Below the pieces are notes generated by a model. The model was not told the origin of the DNA and made no database searches. It worked only from the letters and a program-made list of their open reading frames with translations. From IMG/VR virus record IMGVR_UViG_2861069343_000001: a DNA stretch of 64,000 nucleotides; one strand, 5' to 3'. Numbering within the stretch: the first letter of the stretch is position 1; each line of letters begins with the position of its first letter. This document shows, in pieces, positions 27,944 through 38,635 of this stretch. This DNA is from a virus. Its lineage: Duplodnaviria > Heunggongvirae > Uroviricota > Caudoviricetes. The position numbers were made by a program, and so were the translations under genes.

Positions 27944-27960
27944 ATTGCTCTAATTGATTG
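27944..27960 (+). promoter_or_regulatory. C1 operator upstream of ref
   Basis: ATTGCTCTAATTGATTG. Confidence 0.5.
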
Positions 27961-28058
27961 CTATAATTGAGCCGCAGTTTTTGTCAACTACGAAGACGTT
28001 GCCATTACTTAACTCCTTGACATCATTGGCGGCCATCAGGCCGCCTTTTTTTTGCCAT

Positions 28059-28619
28059 ATGAAAACAATCGAACAAAAAATTGAACAGCACCGTAAGTGG
28101 CAGAAGGCAGCCAGAGAACGAGCGATCGCTCGGCAACGGGAGAAGTTGGCTGATCCGGCCTGGCGAGAATCTCAATATCAGAAAATGCGGAATACTATCG
28201 ACCGCCGTATCGCTAAACAGAAAGAGCGCCCACCAGCCAGCAAAACGCGGAAAAGCGCGGTAAAAATAAAATCTCGTGGCTTGAAGGGACGAACACCGAC
28301 GGCGGAGGAGCGGCGCATAGCCAATGCTCTTGGTGCTCTCCCCTGCATTGCCTGCTATATGCATGGAGTAATATCTGAAGAGGTGTCTCTGCACCATATC
28401 TCCGGTCGTACCGCGCCTGGTTGTCACAAAAAGCAATTGCCACTTTGTAGATGGCACCACCAGCATGCAGCACCGGCTGAAGTAAGAGAAAAATACCCCT
28501 GGCTGGTCCCTGTTCATGCCGATGGTGTGGTTGGAGGCAAGAAAGAATTCACCTTGCTGAACAAGTCAGAGATGGAGTTGCTGGCTGACGCTTATGAGAT
28601 GGCAAACATCATGCACTAA
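28059..28619 (+). CDS. ref: Ref recombination enhancement function (HNH endonuclease)
   Basis: 186 aa from MKTIEQKIEQHRKWQ; HNH-like HHISGRTAPGCHKKQLPLCRWHH. Confidence 0.75.
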   Translation: MKTIEQKIEQHRKWQKAARERAIARQREKLADPAWRESQYQKMRNTIDRRIAKQKERPPASKTRKSAVKIKSRGLKGRTPTAEERRIANALGALPCIACYMHGVISEEVSLHHISGRTAPGCHKKQLPLCRWHHQHAAPAEVREKYPWLVPVHADGVVGGKKEFTLLNKSEMELLADAYEMANIMH

Positions 28620-28808
28620 TAAATATATTATTTTTAATCTGAAATAATTGACAACTGACAAGTGACTTCAGTCAGAATCATCACATGCCCGGTACGGATG
28701 GATCCCTTTTCAAATATTCCATGGACGGCACAGTCTGAGTACCGGGCGCTACCTTCAGTTGTATTGCTAAGCCGCCGCTGGTGGCTTTTCTTTTTTATAA
28801 GGGGCGCT

Positions 28809-29450
28809 ATGGATAAGAAAATATGCGTTGTTTCGATGAGCGTCGGCAAACCGGCGTCAATGACTGCCGCATGGATCAACAATGAGCTGATAATGGCTGA
28901 GCGGACCAGCTACCCTGAACGCCGCCGCGATATGGAACTCCAGCTGCTGCGCGAATTGCAAGAAAAAGAGGAAAAGGGTTTTATCGTGCTGGTGGAAGAG
29001 GAAAACAGCTTTATTACGGGTCGAGTTGGCCAGCGTGTAAGGTTGCGCGATCCCTTCATGAACGGCAGGCCGGTACTAATTGAAGCAATGCAGATTTACA
29101 AGGAGCTGGAACGCCAGAAAGCGATCAAGTTACCGCGCAAAGAATCCGGCAAATACATCCTCCACCAAAGCATCTTCGATTCCGAACACGACAAAAAAGG
29201 CGATGAATTTTTCAACATCAACTGGAGCGAAATAACGACAGAGCACGTTCTGTCGTTGTTATGCTGCTTCGCAACGGAATATAACAACGTTGCAAGCGCC
29301 GACTACATCAGGGCAATGGCTGGAGAAGTTGAGGCCCGCCAGGAACCATCGTTACTAAGCCCTCTGATTAACATAATTCGCGGAACCCAATGTCTAGCCG
29401 ACAAGCGAGTTCCTCAAGGCTTACTTACCGGCAAAGAAAACTATTTATAA
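28809..29450 (+). CDS. hypothetical protein at mat position
   Basis: ORF 28662..29450; start placed at MDKKICVV; start uncertain. Confidence 0.45.
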   Translation: MDKKICVVSMSVGKPASMTAAWINNELIMAERTSYPERRRDMELQLLRELQEKEEKGFIVLVEEENSFITGRVGQRVRLRDPFMNGRPVLIEAMQIYKELERQKAIKLPRKESGKYILHQSIFDSEHDKKGDEFFNINWSEITTEHVLSLLCCFATEYNNVASADYIRAMAGEVEARQEPSLLSPLINIIRGTQCLADKRVPQGLLTGKENYL

Positions 29451-29540
29451 TTAATTACGTCAGTAGCCAATAGAGATTTTTGTTGTGGAACAAAAATATA
29501 TATTTTACAATCTAGTAACTTTGGGTGGAGGATTATTACA

Positions 29541-30581
29541 ATGATGAATATTAAGCCGCTGAAAATTAGGAACAAGGTCATGAAGCCTCATAAAGCATTA
29601 TTAAACCCTGACCTAACCGCAAGGAATGTACTTACATACAGTCATTGGGATTTTGTCGAACTCTGGTTAAAGCGAAACGAAAAAGATGAGGCTCTTTTTT
29701 ATTGGGAGCAAGCAAAAGTATTTAATCAGGCGGCCAATGGTTTACCCAACCAATCAGCCCCACTTTTGCACTATTATTCATTCATGAATGCAGTAAAGGC
29801 GTTACTTTCATCTCGCAATATAAACTTCAAACAGCATCATGGTGTTGCTAGGGGTGAAAATACAGCCCAAATTGATAACTTATCTGATATAAAAGTAAAA
29901 ATAAAAAATGAGGGTATACTTCCGTCTTTTTCAAAATATATTGACGGCACCTCTCATGAGGGGGTGTACAATATAAAAAACCTTTTTTCTGGATTGCCAT
30001 ATATTCATCGTACATATTGCCTTACTTATGATGTAACTGATGATATATTTATTCCACTGATCGATGCTGAGTTCGTTTTGAATGAGTCAGACAATAGCCT
30101 GTTTTTCACTGCGATTTTATCCAAGGATTTTCGGTTCGACACAGTTTTCGACATTCTACCGCCAGCGTTCGAATTGTTTGAAAGAGAAAAGTACAAAATA
30201 AAATCAGTAGAATCATTACTTGATTTTAATGAAAATCAATCGTCCAACATGCCGCAATTAACTGAATTTCATCAAAAAATAAGAAGAGATCTTTACTATA
30301 TCAATGGCGCAGAGACTCTTTGGTATCTCAAACGTAAAAACAATCAATCTGAGCATACTTCTGTTTCAATATCGCCATTGGTTATAACCCTAGCAGCTAT
30401 GCATCGATTAAGTGAGCTATGTCGGTATGACCCACTTAAGCTAAGACAGTTACTAAATGAAAAAGAAAACTGGATTATTGCTGAATTTATTCAACAATCT
30501 CCGTCACAGTTTATAGATGCAATTTCATCTGAAATTACTGGACACCAATTTCTTATCCCAAACGTAAGGTCTGCTTCTTAA
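29541..30581 (+). CDS. hypothetical protein, gene A of AT-rich two-gene cassette (candidate defence system component)
   Basis: 346 aa, low GC, RBS GGTGGAGGA; R-x6-H (RNINFKQH); no ATPase/helicase/methylase motifs. Confidence 0.7.
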   Translation: MMNIKPLKIRNKVMKPHKALLNPDLTARNVLTYSHWDFVELWLKRNEKDEALFYWEQAKVFNQAANGLPNQSAPLLHYYSFMNAVKALLSSRNINFKQHHGVARGENTAQIDNLSDIKVKIKNEGILPSFSKYIDGTSHEGVYNIKNLFSGLPYIHRTYCLTYDVTDDIFIPLIDAEFVLNESDNSLFFTAILSKDFRFDTVFDILPPAFELFEREKYKIKSVESLLDFNENQSSNMPQLTEFHQKIRRDLYYINGAETLWYLKRKNNQSEHTSVSISPLVITLAAMHRLSELCRYDPLKLRQLLNEKENWIIAEFIQQSPSQFIDAISSEITGHQFLIPNVRSAS

Positions 30582-31090
30582 TGAATATATATATCGCATG
30601 CGCTTTAACTCATGTTCCAAGGGAAATTTTCCATGAGTACAGTAATTGGATTCACAGCCTTGCAAAAGGTCTATCTCAAAATAACAACGTAAAATATGCT
30701 TTGATAAATAGTGACCCAGAATTATCAAAGCGCCCTGAAAGTAACAAATCTAGACTTTGTTACATTTGGGACAGAGATATGGTTGAGAAATCTGATGTAA
30801 TAATTGCAGAATGTAGTTTTCCATCAACAGGGCTAGGAATAGAGTTGCAGATTGCTGAACAGAAGAACATTCCTGTAATCATCTGTTATAAAGATTATGG
30901 GATAAATAAAACTAAAACCATTGAATACGTGAATCCAGATGAGACTACCCATAATCTACAAGTTGGCGAGGGTTTCATTTCTCATATGGTATTAGGACTA
31001 CCAAACATCCTTGATGTCATATTATGTAAAGATATTGATAACACATGCAGGAAGCTAAAAATACTGTTAGATATGATTAACCATAATTAA
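30581..31090 (+). CDS. nucleoside 2-deoxyribosyltransferase/TIR-like (Rossmannoid N-glycosidase-like) protein, gene B of cassette
   Basis: 169 aa; start overlaps gene A stop (TAATG); NIYIACAL ... SDVIIAECSFPSTGLGIELQIAEQKNIPVI pattern. Confidence 0.65.
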   Translation: MNIYIACALTHVPREIFHEYSNWIHSLAKGLSQNNNVKYALINSDPELSKRPESNKSRLCYIWDRDMVEKSDVIIAECSFPSTGLGIELQIAEQKNIPVIICYKDYGINKTKTIEYVNPDETTHNLQVGEGFISHMVLGLPNILDVILCKDIDNTCRKLKILLDMINHN

Positions 31091-31120
31091 AAATTAACAC
31101 CCACTTAAGATGTCTAAACC

Positions 31121-31140
31121 AGCCCGGTATTAACCGGGCT
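31121..31140. terminator. hairpin between convergent cassette and lxc
   Basis: AGCCCGGT-ATTA-ACCGGGCT perfect 8-bp stem. Confidence 0.4.
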
Positions 31141-31148
31141 AGACAAAC

Positions 31149-31397
31149 TTAATCAGCATTCAGGAGCAATGCATTATCTATGATGATTTGCTCCCATTCT
31201 TCGAATGCCCGGTCGCGGACGCCCTGGGGAACGCTGTTAGTTTTGAAATCGACGACCGTACGCCATTTCCCGTCCGGGCGGTACATGCGCAGAGCTTTAC
31301 TTCCCCCTTCCCTGCGCACCTCAACGTTATGCTTATCAGCAAACTCTTGTAATGCTCGTAGCGTCCCATGCTTTACTGTGTAGTATCGCTTTTTCAA
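31149..31397 (-). CDS. lxc: Lxc/Bof C1 co-repressor modulator
   Basis: 82-aa ORF between darB operon end and cassette. Confidence 0.6.
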   Translation of the reverse strand: MKKRYYTVKHGTLRALQEFADKHNVEVRREGGSKALRMYRPDGKWRTVVDFKTNSVPQGVRDRAFEEWEQIIIDNALLLNAD

Positions 31398-31834
31398 GTT
31401 TTCTCTCCAGCCTGTGCCAAGGCTTCAACTTCCAAATCGTAAGACTCAAATTCATAGTCCTGGTCGTCAACTTCTTCAGGCACTGGCAGTAAATGCCAGG
31501 CTGAGTATATCTGACCATTATCAAAACGCTCCTGGCTGTAGAGCGTCGCGGCTATGAGTGTTAGAGCCGGGCGGTCATAACGGTAAATTTTGCGAACGTC
31601 ACGGTCAACGAGACGACCGAAATTACCATAACCGCGCTCCAGTAATAATTTTTTAATTTCCGGCCAGTATGGACCATAGCTGCGGTACAGGCGGGGATTT
31701 TTCAGTAATCGCCCGCGTAGCCCTGACAGGAAGAAATCAACGTATTCGTCTTCTGTCTTTCCTAACAACGCTGTACGGAGTACCGCCTCAAGATATGTTT
31801 TATTCGGTTTTATTGTATCAGATAGTGTGGCCAT
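31394..31834 (-). CDS. ulx: Ulx-like protein (upstream of lxc)
   Basis: 146-aa ORF between darB and lxc, overlapping lxc start. Confidence 0.5.
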   Translation of the reverse strand: MATLSDTIKPNKTYLEAVLRTALLGKTEDEYVDFFLSGLRGRLLKNPRLYRSYGPYWPEIKKLLLERGYGNFGRLVDRDVRKIYRYDRPALTLIAATLYSQERFDNGQIYSAWHLLPVPEEVDDQDYEFESYDLEVEALAQAGEKT

Positions 31835-31867
31835 ATTATGCGACGCCCGGCGAACCGGGCGCTCCTG

Positions 31868-34800
31868 TTATGCGTATTGTTGGATGACGGCCAGAACGTC
31901 CGCCACGTTGTGTTTTGTCTCGATAATCCACCAGTTACCCGGGAAATCGCTGTTCTTCGCCTTCGCTGGCAGCCAGCGAGCGCCGAATTTCGCCTTGATT
32001 GCGTCTTTCGCACGGAAAAGAACGCCTTTCATGCCTGAGGCTTCCTGAAGCCCAAATACCTCGCCAGCGGCGAATTTCGGTGCGTACATCATCTTCAGGT
32101 CGGCGGTGGATACGCGATAATTCAGACCAAGAGACTGAGCTATGCTGGTGGCATCACCCTGTATTGATGATAACTCTTCTTGTTTCTCGTTTCTGGCGGC
32201 AATTTCTTCCTCCGTGATGTTGCCAAGGGCCAGGTTTATCCGATCAGCGTCGGCCTGTTTCTCTTCATCGGTGCGCCCGGCAAGAACCGTGTTAATTCTC
32301 TGCAATATCTCCACATGATTCTTGCGCATGCTGAGCAATTCCGGCGTAACCTCGTTAAGATCCACCAGCCCAAGGATGGCAAGGTCGGAAAACATTGATA
32401 CCAGGTTGTAGGTCATGCGATAGCTGAGTTGGCCATAGGCTGATGGCAACTGCACCGCATCCATTTGATAGGCATCCATAAATTTAGAGCCGGCGTTTAC
32501 GACATCCGCAATTGCAGGTGTGATTTTCCCTGTGGTGGCGGCCTCCCTGATTGCTGTTACCCACGATTGAGTCAGTGCGGCGACTGCATGATTCAGATTG
32601 GCTTCCCGTTCTGCTGCGATGCGCGCGTTTGCTGCGTCCATTGCCTGCTTGATCTCGGCTTTATTGCTGTAAATGCCAATGGTGCCAAACTGTGCTGTGG
32701 TGATCTCATAATCTGACGCCCGGAACTCATGGGTACCGAAAATGGCATTGGTGACCTCAAGTTCAGAATCCCCGTTACGAGTAGCCCCCTGGCTTGTTTT
32801 CTCCGGCATTTTTGCGATCGCATCCGCTATTTTCTCCTGAATTGCTTCAGGGGATAGCGTATCTCCGTATGACGCGATTACATCGCCATAATTGGAGCCA
32901 AACAATTCAACCAGGAATGTTTCTGCCGAACGGATCTGGCGGTTATTCCCTTCCGACATCATACCAAGCACCCATTTTGCAATTGACGACTTCAGCGCGC
33001 CGTCACGGCGATCCGGGTAAACCGCATGCTTCAGTGGGTCCGTATAGGTACCAACAAAATCAATGCTATAGCCTGACTCTGTAGTCTGAACGCCGTATGA
33101 GTCAGTGATTTTGATCATGCCGCGCTGCTGGAAACGGTAGAAATCGTCACAGGAAATGATGTCGTTAATCCCGGCGATGGAGACGCCACCACTGATTTTC
33201 TGCATAACAGCATCTTCATCGGGAGTTACATCCACCTGTTTATCCAGCGTCTTCACATCCCAGTTACCCGATTTGGTGCCTCTTAAGGTAAAGATGATCT
33301 CCACGTCTGCGCGCTGGCTGTCGAAGTCCAGCGACTTAATGCGAACGATATCACCGGCACAATCGTAGTATTGGCCTACACGCCATGAGCGATCGCCGAT
33401 AACAAGGAACTCATTCGCATGGTTAACCAGATCAGGATCAACATCCAGAATGCCTTTATTTATTGCATCCTCCACCAGCGGGCGCAGGCGTTTGATATCC
33501 GTCGCGGCCTTCTGAGTACGGTTCAATAATTTCTCATAGCGGGAGATGGCCTGAGAGATATTAGCCTTGCGCTGAATGGCGCTTTTCAACGACGCGCGAT
33601 ACTGTGCTAACAACATACGGTCTGTGTGATGGACACTCCCCCAGCGGGCCTTCCAGTCTGCGTTATCCGCTGCCTTGGCCATTGCCGCCTGTTTGAATTT
33701 AGCTACCTCGGCGGTGGTCTTTTCAAGTTCCGCTTTGCTTCGCTCTAATTCAGCGGTAAGTACCTCCACATCCTCGCCAGCTGCGTGCTGCGCCTTGATG
33801 TAGTTCTGAAGGTCGATAGTAGCCTGTTCTTTCTGGCGAGCGCGTTTCGCAGCTTTCGCCTTATCCATTTGAACCTGCATCATTGCCAGACGTTCGCCGT
33901 CATCCTTCGCGGTATACATCTGCATTTCGATCATGTCATTGGCGTCGGCGTTCTCCATTTCTGACTTATCTGAACGGAGGATATCGGAGATCCAGCCTGC
34001 TTTACGCTTCAGCGTCTTCAGTCGGTATTCATCGAAAGACCCCTTGCCGCAGTAGTAGTGAACGCGAACGCTTGCACGGTTGGAACCAACTCGGGCACCG
34101 CGACCGTTACGCTGTGCGATACTGGCTGGTGTCCACGGCAACGTCAGGTGGTGGATATCCGTCGTTCCTCGATGCAGGTTGATACCCACCTCTGCCTTTT
34201 TGTTGCAGATGATGATCGGAGTCCGGCCCTCCTGGAAGTCGGCTGCAATCTTTTCCAGACCGCCCAACGACATTTCATTTTGCTGCGCGATATAGGCGTC
34301 ATACAGAGCCATTTGCTCGTTGTATTTCGCTATCTGTGCATCTGTTGGTTCATCCGGTAGCTCTTTCGGCGGTTTAACCGCTTTCAGTTTCTTACCGGTT
34401 TTACCTGCCTCGGCAACCGTCTGAGCATTCAGGATCCCCACCTTTGAAGGTTCAAGGTTTAGAGCATTGCAGATAATGCGCTTGAGCTTCTGGTGCTGCG
34501 TTTTTTCATCGGTGAAGATGATTTGCTTACCTTCCGGGAAAAACTCCTTCAGCGTGGCGATCAGCTTCGCGTATTTGGGCGTAACGGGGTGAGTTACGGT
34601 CTGTTCGTCAATGCCAAACCTGGCCAGGCGCTTATTCACTTCCTGCTCGAACGCTTCCGGAACCTGCAACTGAATAAACTCGCCCTTATCTATCAGGGAG
34701 TATTGCGATTGCTGCGTGATTGAATCATCACTGTCGTCGTCTTCGCTGGTGGCTTGTTTAGGCAAACTGTCCGCCAGCTGCTGCACCGCATCGGCGTACT

Positions 34801-37800
34801 CCGGCAGGAAACGATAGGTGATCCGGCGATAGTACAGGTCCATGTCAGTACATACGCGGTCCATATCCCTGATTATTGAGAAGATCGGACGGGCTTTCTC
34901 GTGCTCAATCACGCCGTCTTCATTGACCGAGGTCGTTACGCCATTGTTGGCTTTGGCCGCCGCTTCCGCCTGCTGACGCAATTCTTCATACGCCGCCAGT
35001 TGTTCTTCAGTAAGTGGTGCATCCTGCTGGTGTTCGTCCAGCTCCGGGATCTCCACGGTATCCTTAACGTCTTCCGCCGTTTTAAGCGTTACCCAGCGAT
35101 GGAATATACCGCGCAGCGCATCAAGGTTTTCAAAGCCCATCAGCGCCATTTTTTCTTCAACTTCACCGCTAATTTTCTGTACCGTTTCCAGCCTGGTCTT
35201 GCCGAAGAATTTAACGAAGTCATCAGGACCGTAGATCCCCATGTTCTGCCAGTATTCCTTCGGCAGAACATGAGAAAGCATGTTGTATGCATCGATCGGG
35301 GTGTTAACGACTGGCGTTGCAGTCAGGAGAACCGGCCCGCGCCCGCCATTCTTTTTCATCAGGTACGCGTTTTTAATTGCCATATCTCGCGCCGATTGCG
35401 CCACCGCGCTGGTGGGCAGATAGGCCAGTTGTGACGCTTCGCGACCATTTTTATAGCTATTGCGGTAGTTGTGACCTTCGTCAGCGATCACACTATCGAA
35501 GCCCATATCCTCAAAGTACGGATACTTCTCTGCTTTTTCGGTGCCGGTATCTGAATACTCCGACAATACCCGGCGACGCGCGGCCTCTTTGCGGTGGGAG
35601 TCGGAGTCCATTGCGCTGGCTACGCGTCCGGCGGCAACGAAGTCATAAAGCATATCCTGTGCATGCTCATCTACGGTGTCATCACGTAGCGGAATGCGGG
35701 CGTATTGTTCTTTGGTAAACACGACTGCACGGTAATTTGAGTGCGGGATCGCGTTCATCCGCGCCGTGATAGTGGCTTCATCTGCCAGTTTTAGGGCATC
35801 GCGCATAACTGGAGTGCCATCAGTACCAAGAACAGGTTTACCGTTCTCATCGAGCACCGGCACCTGGCGAATCTGATCGCCATCCATCAGCACATCAAGA
35901 CCGACGAACAGGTAGTTACTGAATGCCTCTTCACTCAGGAATTCTTTTGCTTCGTAATACCAGTTTTCCAGCACTGATTTAGGCACTACATACGCAGTAC
36001 GGGTGGAGCGACCGTTCTCATAGTTGAACGCCTCAAGCGCCAGCGCGGTCGTGGTTTTACCCAGCCCGGTGCCGAAGCCCAGGATGCCGCGCCCATCTTC
36101 GGACAGTCGGCGCACCTCGCTATTCTGGTAATCAAATGGCTGGCGCTTACCGCTTAATCCCTTCAACCCAAGCGGATCGCCAGAGTGTTCATACGGGATA
36201 TTGCTATTGAACACATCGTTGTATTTGGCAACCAGCTCATCGTAGCGATCGTGCGTCTTGATCCACTTATTGAACTGGTCCTCAAGCAGTGCCATCTGCT
36301 CGCGGTAGCCGTTCGCCGTCGCGCTATCTTTGCCACCGATACGCGCACCATTGAGATACTTTTCCAGCTGTGCCGGGAACCCGGTCGCGTTTTCACCTGA
36401 TTTACGGTCCCACTCGTAGCGGATCTCGCCTGTTTCTTTATCCTTACGCTGGACGACACCGTATCGGTGCCCGACGAACAGACCATCACCACCGTGATAG
36501 GTGTCAGAAACCATTTCGTCGCCTTCCAGCTGCACTGACTGCACATAGCGCAGATCCGGATAGCCGTTTTCCTGCAAAAATTCCAGAATGACGGAACGGT
36601 CGAACCAACGGCTATTGAGCTTAAACCGGATATTCTCTGCTGGCGTCTTGATGCGCTTCTCTTCGATCGCTGCCAGCTGATTAAGGACGTTGTTCTTTAC
36701 TGGACCGTCGGGGAGCGTGGCGAGGAATTCCTGTTTTGGAGCCACTATCTCGTTAATGTCGCCGCTGGTGGCGCGGGCGAACGGAACAATCCCGCCATAC
36801 GGTGAAACCGCAATGCCAGGGGTGCTGGCCAATAAATTAAGCAACTCGTCATCACTGGCTGGCAGTTCGCCGGTAAACGCAAGGCGGAAATCATCGAGCT
36901 GGATTGGATCGCGAGTGAGATCACTGTAGAGATAACGCAGGGTGTCCTGATAGCTGGTAGAGTCATAACTGGCGCTGGAATCATGCGTAACCAGTTTTCC
37001 TGTCAGCTCGTCAGAAATAGTGCCATCCAGCTTAATTGCACCACGGAAAGCAAACCAGGCGCGCGCACCGCTCCCCGATAATTTCGCTATCGGACCGCGA
37101 CCGGGGTTACCAAAACGGTCAATCTCTGCCTGCAAACGGGATACCAGAGAAAGGCGCTGCTGTTCGATTTGTTCAGCACTATGCCCGGCGGCCTTCATAT
37201 CCTGATATTCAATTAACATCCGGCCAATCATCGCTCCACGATACAAGCGTTCACGGTATTTTTCAGGCTGGCTGTTAATCCAGTCCACCAGCTGCACCAT
37301 ATCGTCGCTGATTGATGTGGTGTACTTATCGCGGACATTTGCCATCTGGGTAAATGTCATACCGAGACGGCCTTCTGTTGTAGTCAGGTTACGCTGAAGA
37401 GCCTCCCAGCTATCCGCGCCATAACTGGCAACCTCAATCTTCAGCTCCTTCCCGGCATCAGCTTCAATCCAGCGACCACCAGCATATTTTTGCCATACGC
37501 CATTAATCAGGCGCATTTCCCCTTCATCAACAACATCTGCGGTCGGTGACGGTTCAGCCATATCGAGCAAAGACCAGTCGATACGGCTTTCGAAACGATG
37601 AATCAGCTTCGCTTTAAGAGCCTGGTTATCAATCTGACCGTCGGCACGAACCTCAATACGCCCCTGGAAGCCCTTTTCCTGGGTGCCATGAACAAACCGG
37701 CGGCCATCCTTTTCAAACCACTTGCCAGAAATAAACGTTGGCCAAAGCACATTTGCCGATTCAAGAGTGCTCTCATCCACCAGGGGGATTTTCTCAGCCA

Positions 37801-38635
37801 TCTCCGCCGGATGTTTGCGCATCAGCACCACGTCAACGACCGTACTGGTCCCGTTTGCGTCAAAAGTACCGGTAGGCAAGCGGTGGGCACCAAGAAATTC
37901 AGCTTTACGGGATAGGCGCAGGCGTAACCGCTTCATGTTTGAACCTGAAACAATGGACGGCGGCACAATCACGCACATGAATCCGCCAGGCTTTATCTTG
38001 TCCAACATGCGGAGCATGAAGTAAGACCCCATGTCCGTTTCTTCTGCGTAAGGCTTATCGATGTTGCGTGTGTTATCACGACCGCCGAACGGAACGTTAC
38101 CCACAACATGGTCGAATGAATCGTTAGGCGTGCTTACAGCCAGTTGTTCGAACGGGGAAATTTGTACGCTGTCTTCCGGATGTAACAGCTGGTTTATACG
38201 ACCGGAAACACTGCTGATCTCAGTCGCGGTCATCACCGTACCAACCGGTTTTGTCTCATTAAAAACGCCGGTTCCCGCCGATGGTTCCAGAGTGTTACCT
38301 ACGTCCGCGCCGTAGAGCTTCATGATCTCCCAGACACCTTCAGCGATCGGCTTTGGTGTGTAATATTCGGAGACGGACCCGCCAATGCCGCCTTCACCGG
38401 TGTACCCAGCCAGGATCTGGCGCTGTTCATCTGTCAGTGTCGCGCCGTCCACCAGCGAATTAAGCAAATCTATCGCCTTCTGATTCGCCTCACGGCGCAG
38501 TCGGTCATAGCTTTTGCCTTCCACCTTTTCCACGCCGTATTTAATCGGCGCTCGGTGAGATGTTATTGCCCTAATGTATTTCAATATTTCGCTGACACTT
38601 GAACAGCGAAACACTCCCATAGATAGCTTGTTCAT
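31868..38635 (-). CDS. darB: DarB antirestriction protein (N6-adenine methyltransferase + SF2 helicase)
   Basis: 2255 aa; methyltransferase region (NVPFGG), helicase motifs (GFGTGLGKTTTALA, DEGH, TATPVVN). Confidence 0.9.
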   Translation of the reverse strand: MNKLSMGVFRCSSVSEILKYIRAITSHRAPIKYGVEKVEGKSYDRLRREANQKAIDLLNSLVDGATLTDEQRQILAGYTGEGGIGGSVSEYYTPKPIAEGVWEIMKLYGADVGNTLEPSAGTGVFNETKPVGTVMTATEISSVSGRINQLLHPEDSVQISPFEQLAVSTPNDSFDHVVGNVPFGGRDNTRNIDKPYAEETDMGSYFMLRMLDKIKPGGFMCVIVPPSIVSGSNMKRLRLRLSRKAEFLGAHRLPTGTFDANGTSTVVDVVLMRKHPAEMAEKIPLVDESTLESANVLWPTFISGKWFEKDGRRFVHGTQEKGFQGRIEVRADGQIDNQALKAKLIHRFESRIDWSLLDMAEPSPTADVVDEGEMRLINGVWQKYAGGRWIEADAGKELKIEVASYGADSWEALQRNLTTTEGRLGMTFTQMANVRDKYTTSISDDMVQLVDWINSQPEKYRERLYRGAMIGRMLIEYQDMKAAGHSAEQIEQQRLSLVSRLQAEIDRFGNPGRGPIAKLSGSGARAWFAFRGAIKLDGTISDELTGKLVTHDSSASYDSTSYQDTLRYLYSDLTRDPIQLDDFRLAFTGELPASDDELLNLLASTPGIAVSPYGGIVPFARATSGDINEIVAPKQEFLATLPDGPVKNNVLNQLAAIEEKRIKTPAENIRFKLNSRWFDRSVILEFLQENGYPDLRYVQSVQLEGDEMVSDTYHGGDGLFVGHRYGVVQRKDKETGEIRYEWDRKSGENATGFPAQLEKYLNGARIGGKDSATANGYREQMALLEDQFNKWIKTHDRYDELVAKYNDVFNSNIPYEHSGDPLGLKGLSGKRQPFDYQNSEVRRLSEDGRGILGFGTGLGKTTTALALEAFNYENGRSTRTAYVVPKSVLENWYYEAKEFLSEEAFSNYLFVGLDVLMDGDQIRQVPVLDENGKPVLGTDGTPVMRDALKLADEATITARMNAIPHSNYRAVVFTKEQYARIPLRDDTVDEHAQDMLYDFVAAGRVASAMDSDSHRKEAARRRVLSEYSDTGTEKAEKYPYFEDMGFDSVIADEGHNYRNSYKNGREASQLAYLPTSAVAQSARDMAIKNAYLMKKNGGRGPVLLTATPVVNTPIDAYNMLSHVLPKEYWQNMGIYGPDDFVKFFGKTRLETVQKISGEVEEKMALMGFENLDALRGIFHRWVTLKTAEDVKDTVEIPELDEHQQDAPLTEEQLAAYEELRQQAEAAAKANNGVTTSVNEDGVIEHEKARPIFSIIRDMDRVCTDMDLYYRRITYRFLPEYADAVQQLADSLPKQATSEDDDSDDSITQQSQYSLIDKGEFIQLQVPEAFEQEVNKRLARFGIDEQTVTHPVTPKYAKLIATLKEFFPEGKQIIFTDEKTQHQKLKRIICNALNLEPSKVGILNAQTVAEAGKTGKKLKAVKPPKELPDEPTDAQIAKYNEQMALYDAYIAQQNEMSLGGLEKIAADFQEGRTPIIICNKKAEVGINLHRGTTDIHHLTLPWTPASIAQRNGRGARVGSNRASVRVHYYCGKGSFDEYRLKTLKRKAGWISDILRSDKSEMENADANDMIEMQMYTAKDDGERLAMMQVQMDKAKAAKRARQKEQATIDLQNYIKAQHAAGEDVEVLTAELERSKAELEKTTAEVAKFKQAAMAKAADNADWKARWGSVHHTDRMLLAQYRASLKSAIQRKANISQAISRYEKLLNRTQKAATDIKRLRPLVEDAINKGILDVDPDLVNHANEFLVIGDRSWRVGQYYDCAGDIVRIKSLDFDSQRADVEIIFTLRGTKSGNWDVKTLDKQVDVTPDEDAVMQKISGGVSIAGINDIISCDDFYRFQQRGMIKITDSYGVQTTESGYSIDFVGTYTDPLKHAVYPDRRDGALKSSIAKWVLGMMSEGNNRQIRSAETFLVELFGSNYGDVIASYGDTLSPEAIQEKIADAIAKMPEKTSQGATRNGDSELEVTNAIFGTHEFRASDYEITTAQFGTIGIYSNKAEIKQAMDAANARIAAEREANLNHAVAALTQSWVTAIREAATTGKITPAIADVVNAGSKFMDAYQMDAVQLPSAYGQLSYRMTYNLVSMFSDLAILGLVDLNEVTPELLSMRKNHVEILQRINTVLAGRTDEEKQADADRINLALGNITEEEIAARNEKQEELSSIQGDATSIAQSLGLNYRVSTADLKMMYAPKFAAGEVFGLQEASGMKGVLFRAKDAIKAKFGARWLPAKAKNSDFPGNWWIIETKHNVADVLAVIQQYA

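Follow-up and report, generated by a model that had tools for sequence, protein, structure and literature searches.

A YaaC and DNPH1-like gene pair in the mat-lxc slot of P1-like phage-plasmids: a candidate module for excluding competing phages

We analysed a stretch of 64,000 nucleotides (nt) from a virus of the Caudoviricetes (IMG/VR record IMGVR_UViG_2861069343_000001; this whole stretch is termed the window, and positions refer to it unless a locus is named). At 29451-31148, in the slot that P1-like phages have between mat and lxc, it carries a foreign, mobile and tightly coupled two-gene unit encoding a YaaC-family protein (A) and a small relative of the N-glycosidase DNPH1/Rcl (B). Going by homology and by structural models, we tentatively propose, with somewhat less than even confidence, that the cassette is a mobile two-protein module for excluding competing phages, in which B would be a nucleotide-destroying effector and A its sensor or gate. 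An earlier account of the same DNA, made from its letters alone (hereafter the sequence-only reading), had singled out this pair of genes.

The cassette between mat and lxc

The slot is bordered on the left by mat (28809-29450, + strand), annotated as a maturation control protein in NZ_CP023896 and P1, and on the right by lxc (31149-31397, - strand), beyond which lie ulx (31394-31834) and darB (31868-38635). When 27950-32600 was compared with phage genomes by megablast, homology to P1-like phages stopped at 29450, the stop codon of mat, and restarted at 31149, the stop codon of lxc. The 1698 bp in between, which run from one stop codon to the other and are assigned to neither strand, make up the whole foreign cassette. 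In P1 itself (NC_005856) res, mod and IS5 occupy the interval, and the homology breaks together with this gene order bear out the earlier claim that the cassette replaces the res-mod genes of P1. Moreover, the G+C content (GC) averages 47.7% over the window but 35.0% in the cassette; no other 1.7-kb stretch in the 64 kb is as low (standard deviation 3.3%), and the 5-kb flanks have 46.7% and 51.8%. The AT-rich, foreign composition described previously is thus upheld by calculation.

Sister P1-like phages carry different cargo between mat and lxc, and the slot is therefore a cargo hot spot for toxin- or defence-like genes. It is empty in phage RCS47 (H31), holds a RelA/SpoT-like pair matching the PADLOC candidate PDC-S33 in vB_EcoM-673R5 (locus L009, 2095-3194) and SJ46, and in JL22 (L010, 2044-2994) holds a 315-aa PIN-domain protein with a partial match to PDC-S34. 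The exact 1698-bp cassette was found in 85 PLSDB plasmids (78 Escherichia, 6 Salmonella and 1 Cronobacter) and in 109 of 5426 complete E. coli genomes (about 2%), nearly always on plasmids of 70-100 kb. There, A and B are annotated as 'YaaC family protein' and 'hypothetical protein', respectively, and B was still hypothetical in RefSeq in September 2026. Within IMG/VR the pair is present on four P1-like contigs and two other viral contigs.

Gene A (29541-30581, + strand) encodes 346 aa and gene B (30581-31090, + strand) 169 aa. They meet in a TAATG stop/start overlap (30579-30583, + strand), where TAA (30579-30581) and ATG (30581-30583) have one base in common. These open reading frame (ORF) coordinates confirm the two genes and the overlap as first described; the analogy then drawn with phd-doc finds no support beyond this overlap. 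The same 1-nt junction recurs in Bradyrhizobium, Chryseobacterium and E. coli chromosomal and prophage loci. To survey the pair more widely, a B profile was scanned over one genome per species, which returned 37 loci from about nine phyla, spread across Bacteroidota, Alpha-, Beta- and Gammaproteobacteria, Desulfobacterota, Campylobacterota, Myxococcota, Armatimonadota and Planctomycetota. A lies directly 5' of B on the same strand in 32 of the 37; two loci are cut by contig ends and the remaining three (L022, L032 and L050) have another partner. In total, about 240 homologues of B and 770 of A are known. No third conserved gene emerged near the pair when 518 neighbour proteins were clustered.

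Two proteins and an exchangeable partner

B belongs to the nucleoside 2-deoxyribosyltransferase (NDT) superfamily. Its match to Pfam PF05014 (Nuc_deoxyrib_tr; E 1.8e-4, 22.1 bits) falls under the gathering cut-off of 28.8; some members of the B family do pass this cut-off in precomputed annotation. Searched against the PDB, a profile of the family retrieved rat Rcl and human DNPH1 (E 4e-5 to 2e-4), with WD64...PS82TGLGIE88LQ of B aligned on EQD...PSLGVGYELG of Rcl. We take D64, S82 and E88 to be the equivalents of the sugar-binding Asp, the phosphate-binding Ser and the nucleophilic Glu of Rcl, respectively. Among 36 sequences the invariant residues are Y4, D64, E88, S44-D45-P46, C60-Y61, W63, Q127, G129 and G131, and S82 is conserved in at least 90%. 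The sequence-only reading had proposed a catalytic Glu in GIELQ, which is this E88, invariant and aligned with the catalytic Glu of Rcl.

The AlphaFold2 model of B (predicted local distance difference test, pLDDT, 96) has a flavodoxin-like fold, as do NDT and DNPH1. Its best Foldseek neighbours are DNPH1, bacterial and cyanobacterial NDTs and the CMP N-glycosidase BcmB (E 1e-5, probability 1.0, template modelling (TM) score 0.58-0.76), in agreement with the deoxyribosyltransferase-type fold suspected before. Because it combines these neighbours with a complete DNPH1-type catalytic set, B is very probably an active N-glycosidase, predicted to act on a nucleoside monophosphate. DNPH1/Rcl is a 2'-deoxynucleoside 5'-phosphate N-hydrolase; the PDB lists it under the name 5-hydroxymethyl-dUMP N-hydrolase as well. 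By a Tyr/Phe rule that is reported to separate Rcl from MilB/BcmB, the invariant Tyr4 would favour 2'-deoxy over ribo substrates. B has the fold of DNPH1/Rcl, NDT and BcmB/MilB, their PS-G-G-x-E block with an upstream Asp, and a similar size. It differs from DNPH1/Rcl in sequence (14-22% identity), in an extra conserved beta-hairpin region (110-140: NPD...H.LQ.G.G) and in being always encoded with a partner, on mobile elements.

Members of the B family have about 170 aa and are 45-72% identical across phyla. The family is small, with 33 clusters (50% identity) at E 1e-30 among 1.84 billion representatives, and the ratio of non-synonymous to synonymous substitution rates (dN/dS) of B between the two P1-borne alleles is 0.049. 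Distant B-like domains with the motif PSTGTGQELERA were seen in P0414, P0416, P0418, P0421, P0435 and P0452, fused to long low-complexity or coiled C-terminal tails. These long proteins contain no further recognisable Pfam domain and hence give no fusion clue.

A matches the Pfam family YaaC (PF14175) at 157.6 bits (cut-off 27; E 6e-46), over residues 34-332 of A and positions 18-307 of the 307 in the profile. It has the up-down helical bundle of the HEPN fold in a split form: the helices lie at about 35-91 and 279-333, and the stretch between them, at about 100-278, forms an alpha/beta insert. Across 32 aligned homologues (42-60% identity), 47 columns are invariant. HEPN had been suggested earlier on the strength of an R-x6-H motif, RNINFKQH. 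The motif is present in this A and the fold is indeed HEPN, but the motif is not conserved: across the family R92 is R, K or N and H99 is H, Y, N, R, M or S, H100 alone being invariant, and no conserved Arg/His pair 4-6 residues apart exists either in 32 paired sequences or in solo YaaC. The residues kept in both paired and solo YaaC are H100, H156-R157, R248, W261-Y262, H288, R295-Y296, E315, D326, E331 and R343, a set that in sequence terms is compatible with a phosphate- or nucleotide-directed site.

Conservation along A is uneven, with a majority-residue fraction of 0.47 in residues 173-247 versus 0.73 and 0.79 in the two HEPN halves. Of the 22 substitutions that separate the two P1-borne alleles of A, 19 map to residues 106-274, and the HEPN helices contain none; the dN/dS of A for this comparison is 0.29. 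This concentration of allelic substitutions and low conservation in the insert is what we count as evidence for A as a sensor or gate.

Searches of the PDB with a full-length profile of A found no HEPN or other relative, and a construct of the HEPN core with the insert removed found no relative there either. The sole hit of these profile searches, an oligoribonuclease (E 0.5), was attributed to chance. With Foldseek, too, A had no significant match in the PDB; Usb1 scored best (E 0.64, probability 0.1), and with that result a 2H-phosphoesterase reading of H156-R-T158 was dropped. In Bacillus, YaaC is a conserved chromosomal gene. Solo YaaC proteins (32-37% identity) were found in Pseudomonas, Acinetobacter and Priestia, on plasmids in each case, and on a replicon of Acetoanaerobium (L059, 3836-5056; L060, 3869-5068; L061, 3986-5032; L062, 4055-4993). 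Three of these proteins are extended at the N terminus by a coiled coil, and their C-terminal tail reads GDDFRxTGFR in place of GHQFLxPNVR. The Acetoanaerobium gene appears frameshifted and adjoins an HsdM-like methylase. YaaC is not mentioned in the 2013 survey of HEPN proteins (PMC3710099).

In the three loci with another partner, B follows with a short overlap a protein of 316-352 aa that we term DCD-TM (L022, 9009-10004; L032, 8946-10004; L050, 2297-3247). DCD-TM has an N-terminal dCTP-deaminase (DCD)-like domain (PF22769, E 1e-26), with the RSSYARLG and PLE motifs intact, and C-terminal transmembrane (TM) helices. Together with B it forms a cassette of the Vibrio cholerae superintegron, where B is 51% identical to B of the window. 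Kinship between YaaC and DCD-TM was considered and rejected (hhalign probability 0.1). Elsewhere (other loci include L065, 5001-6002; L067, 5001-5978; L068, 5001-5972), DCD-TM is accompanied by GTP cyclohydrolase II and a HAD hydrolase, next to a type IIG restriction-modification (R-M) gene, forms part of a type I R-M operon, or is solo and preceded by a small WYL protein. About 245 relatives were found. DCD-TM has no match among the PADLOC 2023 models and seems to be a nucleotide-degrading defence family of its own that is still uncatalogued. As an alternative partner of B, DCD-TM supports a mechanism directed at the nucleotide pool and points to deoxynucleotides.

Neighbourhood and candidate functions

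Genes found within 5 kb of the pair include Gabija (GajA 2e-227, GajB 1e-126), PDC-M19A/B, mad3, type I and type II R-M systems and AriA-like proteins. The E. coli chromosomal pair lies near BrxR, a Dpd cluster and an integrase, that of Piscirickettsia has AbiD nearby (9e-78), and that of Chryseobacterium has PycTM and DUF2726 helicases nearby. The presence of homologues in such defence islands agrees with the proposal of the sequence-only reading that the pair is a candidate defence module. In one metagenomic locus YaaC is immediately preceded, on its own strand, by the gene of a 5'-nucleotidase (PF06189; PDC-S08, E 1e-125), a homologue of which occurs close to the pair in Ralstonia (the two loci being L015, 5410-6882, and L042, 7776-8768); this enzyme could be an optional third nucleotide-handling component.

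Prophages also carry the pair. It is cargo of a lambdoid prophage, where it adjoins a DNA methylase, and its closest non-P1 relatives (A 60% and B 71% identity) are situated in P2-like prophages, at a site flanked by tail gene S and baseplate gene V (L070, 6949-8510; L072, 8001-9562), with an 8xMP membrane protein and a Gp49/HTH_37 pair nearby. P2 itself has accessory genes at the S-V site. The P2 hotspot of Rousset et al. is gpA-gpQ and so is not the site of these relatives.

Compared with PADLOC-DB v2.0.0 (2023), neither A nor B matched any model at E up to 1, nor did solo YaaC, and neither protein has an NCBIfam or PHROGs assignment. The open-access literature that was searched does not describe the pair, which leaves newer defence catalogues or other papers that could already list it; as far as PADLOC 2023 and open-access papers go, the earlier description of the module as undescribed stands. 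No methyltransferase, helicase, nuclease or ATPase domain was found in A or B with Pfam and NCBIfam, matching the earlier statement that ATPase, helicase and methyltransferase are lacking.

Several known systems are close to the cassette in one respect or another. EcoP1I, the type III R-M system (res-mod) of P1, occupies the same slot and presumably has the same role of excluding foreign DNA and phages, but the cassette is 1.7 kb instead of about 5 kb, lies in the opposite orientation and lacks Mod and Res domains. Unlike HEPN proteins of abortive-infection (Abi) and toxin-antitoxin (TA) systems (AbiD/F, HEPN-MNT; minimal HEPN AF0298/UPF0332), A has no R-x4-6-H motif; it carries an alpha/beta insert of ~180 residues between the HEPN halves, and sequence profiles reach no HEPN family. 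The NDT-like effector of Retron-Eco1 (Ec86) is an anti-phage deoxyribosyltransferase-like glycosidase that is restrained by a partner and is reported to deplete NAD+ (PMC13276650). In contrast, the cassette has neither a reverse transcriptase nor a non-coding RNA (ncRNA), B matches no PADLOC retron model, and the partner is YaaC. An Rfam search of 28500-32000 found no RNA family, and therefore a retron-like ncRNA is absent; there is no reverse transcriptase ORF.

ThsI of type VIII Thoeris combines a CMP-hydrolase domain with TPR and is proposed to manipulate the nucleotide pool (bioRxiv 2025.12.03.692087). It is activated by a signal that TIR makes, whereas no TIR gene or TPR domain was found here or in the 37 related loci. 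For dCTP deaminase and dGTPase depletion genes the proposed outcome is the same, namely starved phage DNA synthesis, and a DCD-like protein is the alternative partner of B; however, A is unrelated to DCD and the substrates of B would be monophosphates. Bacterial immunity by nucleotide depletion is well established. The combination of YaaC with B matches the architecture of neither the Retron-Eco1, the type VIII Thoeris nor the DUF4062 (Swarozyc) effectors.

In the explanation that we tentatively favour, P1-like phage-plasmids would carry the cassette in their defence-cargo slot and would thereby exclude competing phages. The TAATG junction would deliver A and B in fixed proportion, and the two proteins would probably form a complex. 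Once the module is switched on, B would cleave the base from (deoxy)nucleoside 5'-monophosphates, irreversibly destroying nucleotides for phage DNA synthesis and starving the invader. A would control or feed B, either by sensing infection or by supplying or gating the substrate; its HEPN-fold core is strictly conserved and has no RNase motif, and its insert evolves at the fast pace that would be expected if this surface recognised a phage product.

A number of observations weigh against this phage-exclusion model. For related defence effectors of the NDT-like and TIR-like types, hydrolysis of NAD+ has been reported (PMC13276650; bioRxiv 2026.05.01.722283). The His/Arg clusters of A (H100, H156-R157, H288 and R295) look, from the alignment, more like an enzyme site than a pure sensor, and the solo YaaC genes on plasmids imply that A does not need B. 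Neither A nor B has a homologue in 50,697 GenBank phage genomes, and the cassette is absent from GenBank phage records at both the DNA and the protein level. The association with defence genes and mobile elements is qualitative. Lastly, the cassette's own promoter is weak.

One rival is an abortive-infection module in which B would be a TIR/NDT-like NADase, kept inactive by A until infection. NDT, TIR and DUF4062 form one Rossmann-like glycosidase group with a catalytic Glu, which is invariant in B; the Ec86 effector reportedly depletes NAD+ (PMC13276650), and DUF4062 (Swarozyc) is a TIR-like NADase (bioRxiv 2026.05.01.722283). We nevertheless consider NAD+ depletion unlikely, given that in structure and sequence B is closest to DNPH1/Rcl, which are dNMP hydrolases, and to BcmB, a CMP glycosidase, and not to TIR domains, that B keeps the 5'-phosphate-binding Ser of Rcl and matches no PADLOC retron or TIR effector model, and that its alternative partner is dCTP-deaminase-like, pointing to deoxynucleotides. 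Two further proposals come next in our ranking. The pair might be a toxin-antitoxin or addiction module, with B as toxin and A as antitoxin, that secures stable inheritance of the P1 plasmid prophage or of an island and has no dedicated anti-phage role. Tight coupling of the genes and residence on a low-copy plasmid prophage would fit, as would the sibling pair of V. cholerae, which lies among TA-rich superintegron cassettes. The R-M system that fills the slot in P1 can itself work in addiction. However, A is twice as large as B, lacks any helix-turn-helix (HTH), ribbon-helix-helix (RHH) or AbrB domain, and is highly conserved with enzyme-like invariant residues. Moreover, B pairs with two unrelated large partners, YaaC occurs without B and chromosomal copies adjoin defence systems, all of which makes addiction quite unlikely and places it just after NAD+ depletion. 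Alternatively, A itself could be the effector, as a divergent HEPN-derived, metal-independent RNase or phosphodiesterase (H100, H156-R157, H288, R295-Y296) whose nucleotide products B would process. This would agree with the HEPN fold of A, with His/Arg residues that are invariant in paired and solo YaaC, with the ability of YaaC to stand alone and with the fact that DCD-TM, the substitute for A, is itself an enzyme. Yet the family has no conserved R-x4-6-H, and neither sequence profiles nor Foldseek find a nuclease relative, so that we hold this proposal doubtful and rank it after addiction.

Equally doubtful in our estimate is a variant in which immunity would be non-abortive and phage-selective. 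Here B would specifically hydrolyse modified deoxynucleotides that only invading phages make (hydroxymethyl (hm)-dCMP of T-even phages; hm-dUMP or dUMP of others), and YaaC or the DCD-like protein would generate or channel the substrate. It takes its cue from the nearest structural relatives of B, namely DNPH1, which acts on 5-hydroxymethyl-dUMP, and MilB, which acts on hydroxymethyl-CMP. Finally, the pair could benefit the phage as counter-defence or salvage, destroying host immune signalling nucleotides or recycling nucleotides. It resides in a phage and adjoins the anti-restriction genes ulx and darB; on the other hand, most homologues are on bacterial chromosomes or plasmids and adjoin defence genes, the 50,697 phage genomes hold none, and the slot otherwise carries R-M, toxSAS-like and PIN cargo. 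We regard such a function as very improbable, the least favoured of all.

Flanking sequences, other cargo and significance

Translation of A would start from a Shine-Dalgarno sequence, GGAGG (29527-29531, + strand), 9 nt 5' of its ATG, which is the strong ribosome-binding site noted earlier. The window reads ATGATG at the start of A (29541-29546). The second P1-borne allele reads ATAATG (L064, 391-396), and its annotated gene begins with the second ATG, so that in some alleles A may truly start at 29544 (345 aa). Further upstream, the AT-rich palindrome of the sequence-only reading is real (29469-29504, + strand; 16-nt arms, 88% complementary, 4-nt loop) and is possibly an operator or a weak mat terminator, its RNA fold showing no improvement over shuffles (z -0.15). 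The same account had given the cassette a promoter of its own, which did not rise above chance. The sequence concerned, TTGTGG-17-TACAAT (29483-29511, + strand; TTGTGG 29483-29488, TACAAT 29506-29511), agrees with the consensus at 8 of 12 positions, one short of the 9 that the consensus scan needs to call a site, and the region has 4 promoter-like sites versus 7.8 in shuffles. Since this promoter is weak and uncalled, read-through from mat is possible.

Between the convergent B and lxc genes lies a GC-rich stem-loop (31111-31145, assigned to neither strand) with a perfect 8-bp stem (31121-31128 / 31133-31140). Its folding energy is -19 kcal/mol on the + strand and -25 kcal/mol on the - strand (z -5.3 and -5.1). 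It is terminator-like on both strands, without a classical T-run, and a terminator scan of the region called none, this stem-loop included.

The second most AT-rich stretch of the window (14247-15884, + strand, about 37% GC) encodes a 545-aa Acyl_transf_3 plus SGNH protein of the O-acetyltransferase type. It is bracketed by insertion sequence (IS) fragments and IS3-like orfA/orfB (flanks 13412-13735 and 15928-17200), and the protein may be a surface-modifying cargo of the phage-plasmid.

If the cassette is protective, it would provide the first function linked to the YaaC family. Should the proposed mechanism be true, B would be the first free-standing DNPH1-like nucleotide N-glycosidase to serve as an immune effector, and removal of the base from monophosphates would be a new enzymatic route for nucleotide-depletion immunity. 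Under the doubtful modified-nucleotide variant, YaaC, unassigned since the Bacillus genome, would be a HEPN-derived nucleotide-handling protein. Moreover, the partner swap to DCD-TM, itself found with GTP cyclohydrolase II and a HAD hydrolase, points to a wider and still uncatalogued set of multi-enzyme nucleotide-degrading cassettes. Human DNPH1 is a drug target, and a bacterial immune homologue of it would thus be of comparative interest. Given that about 2% of complete E. coli genomes contain the cassette, carried by P1-like phage-plasmids that also spread resistance genes, it could influence the outcomes of phage therapy and the competition between phages.

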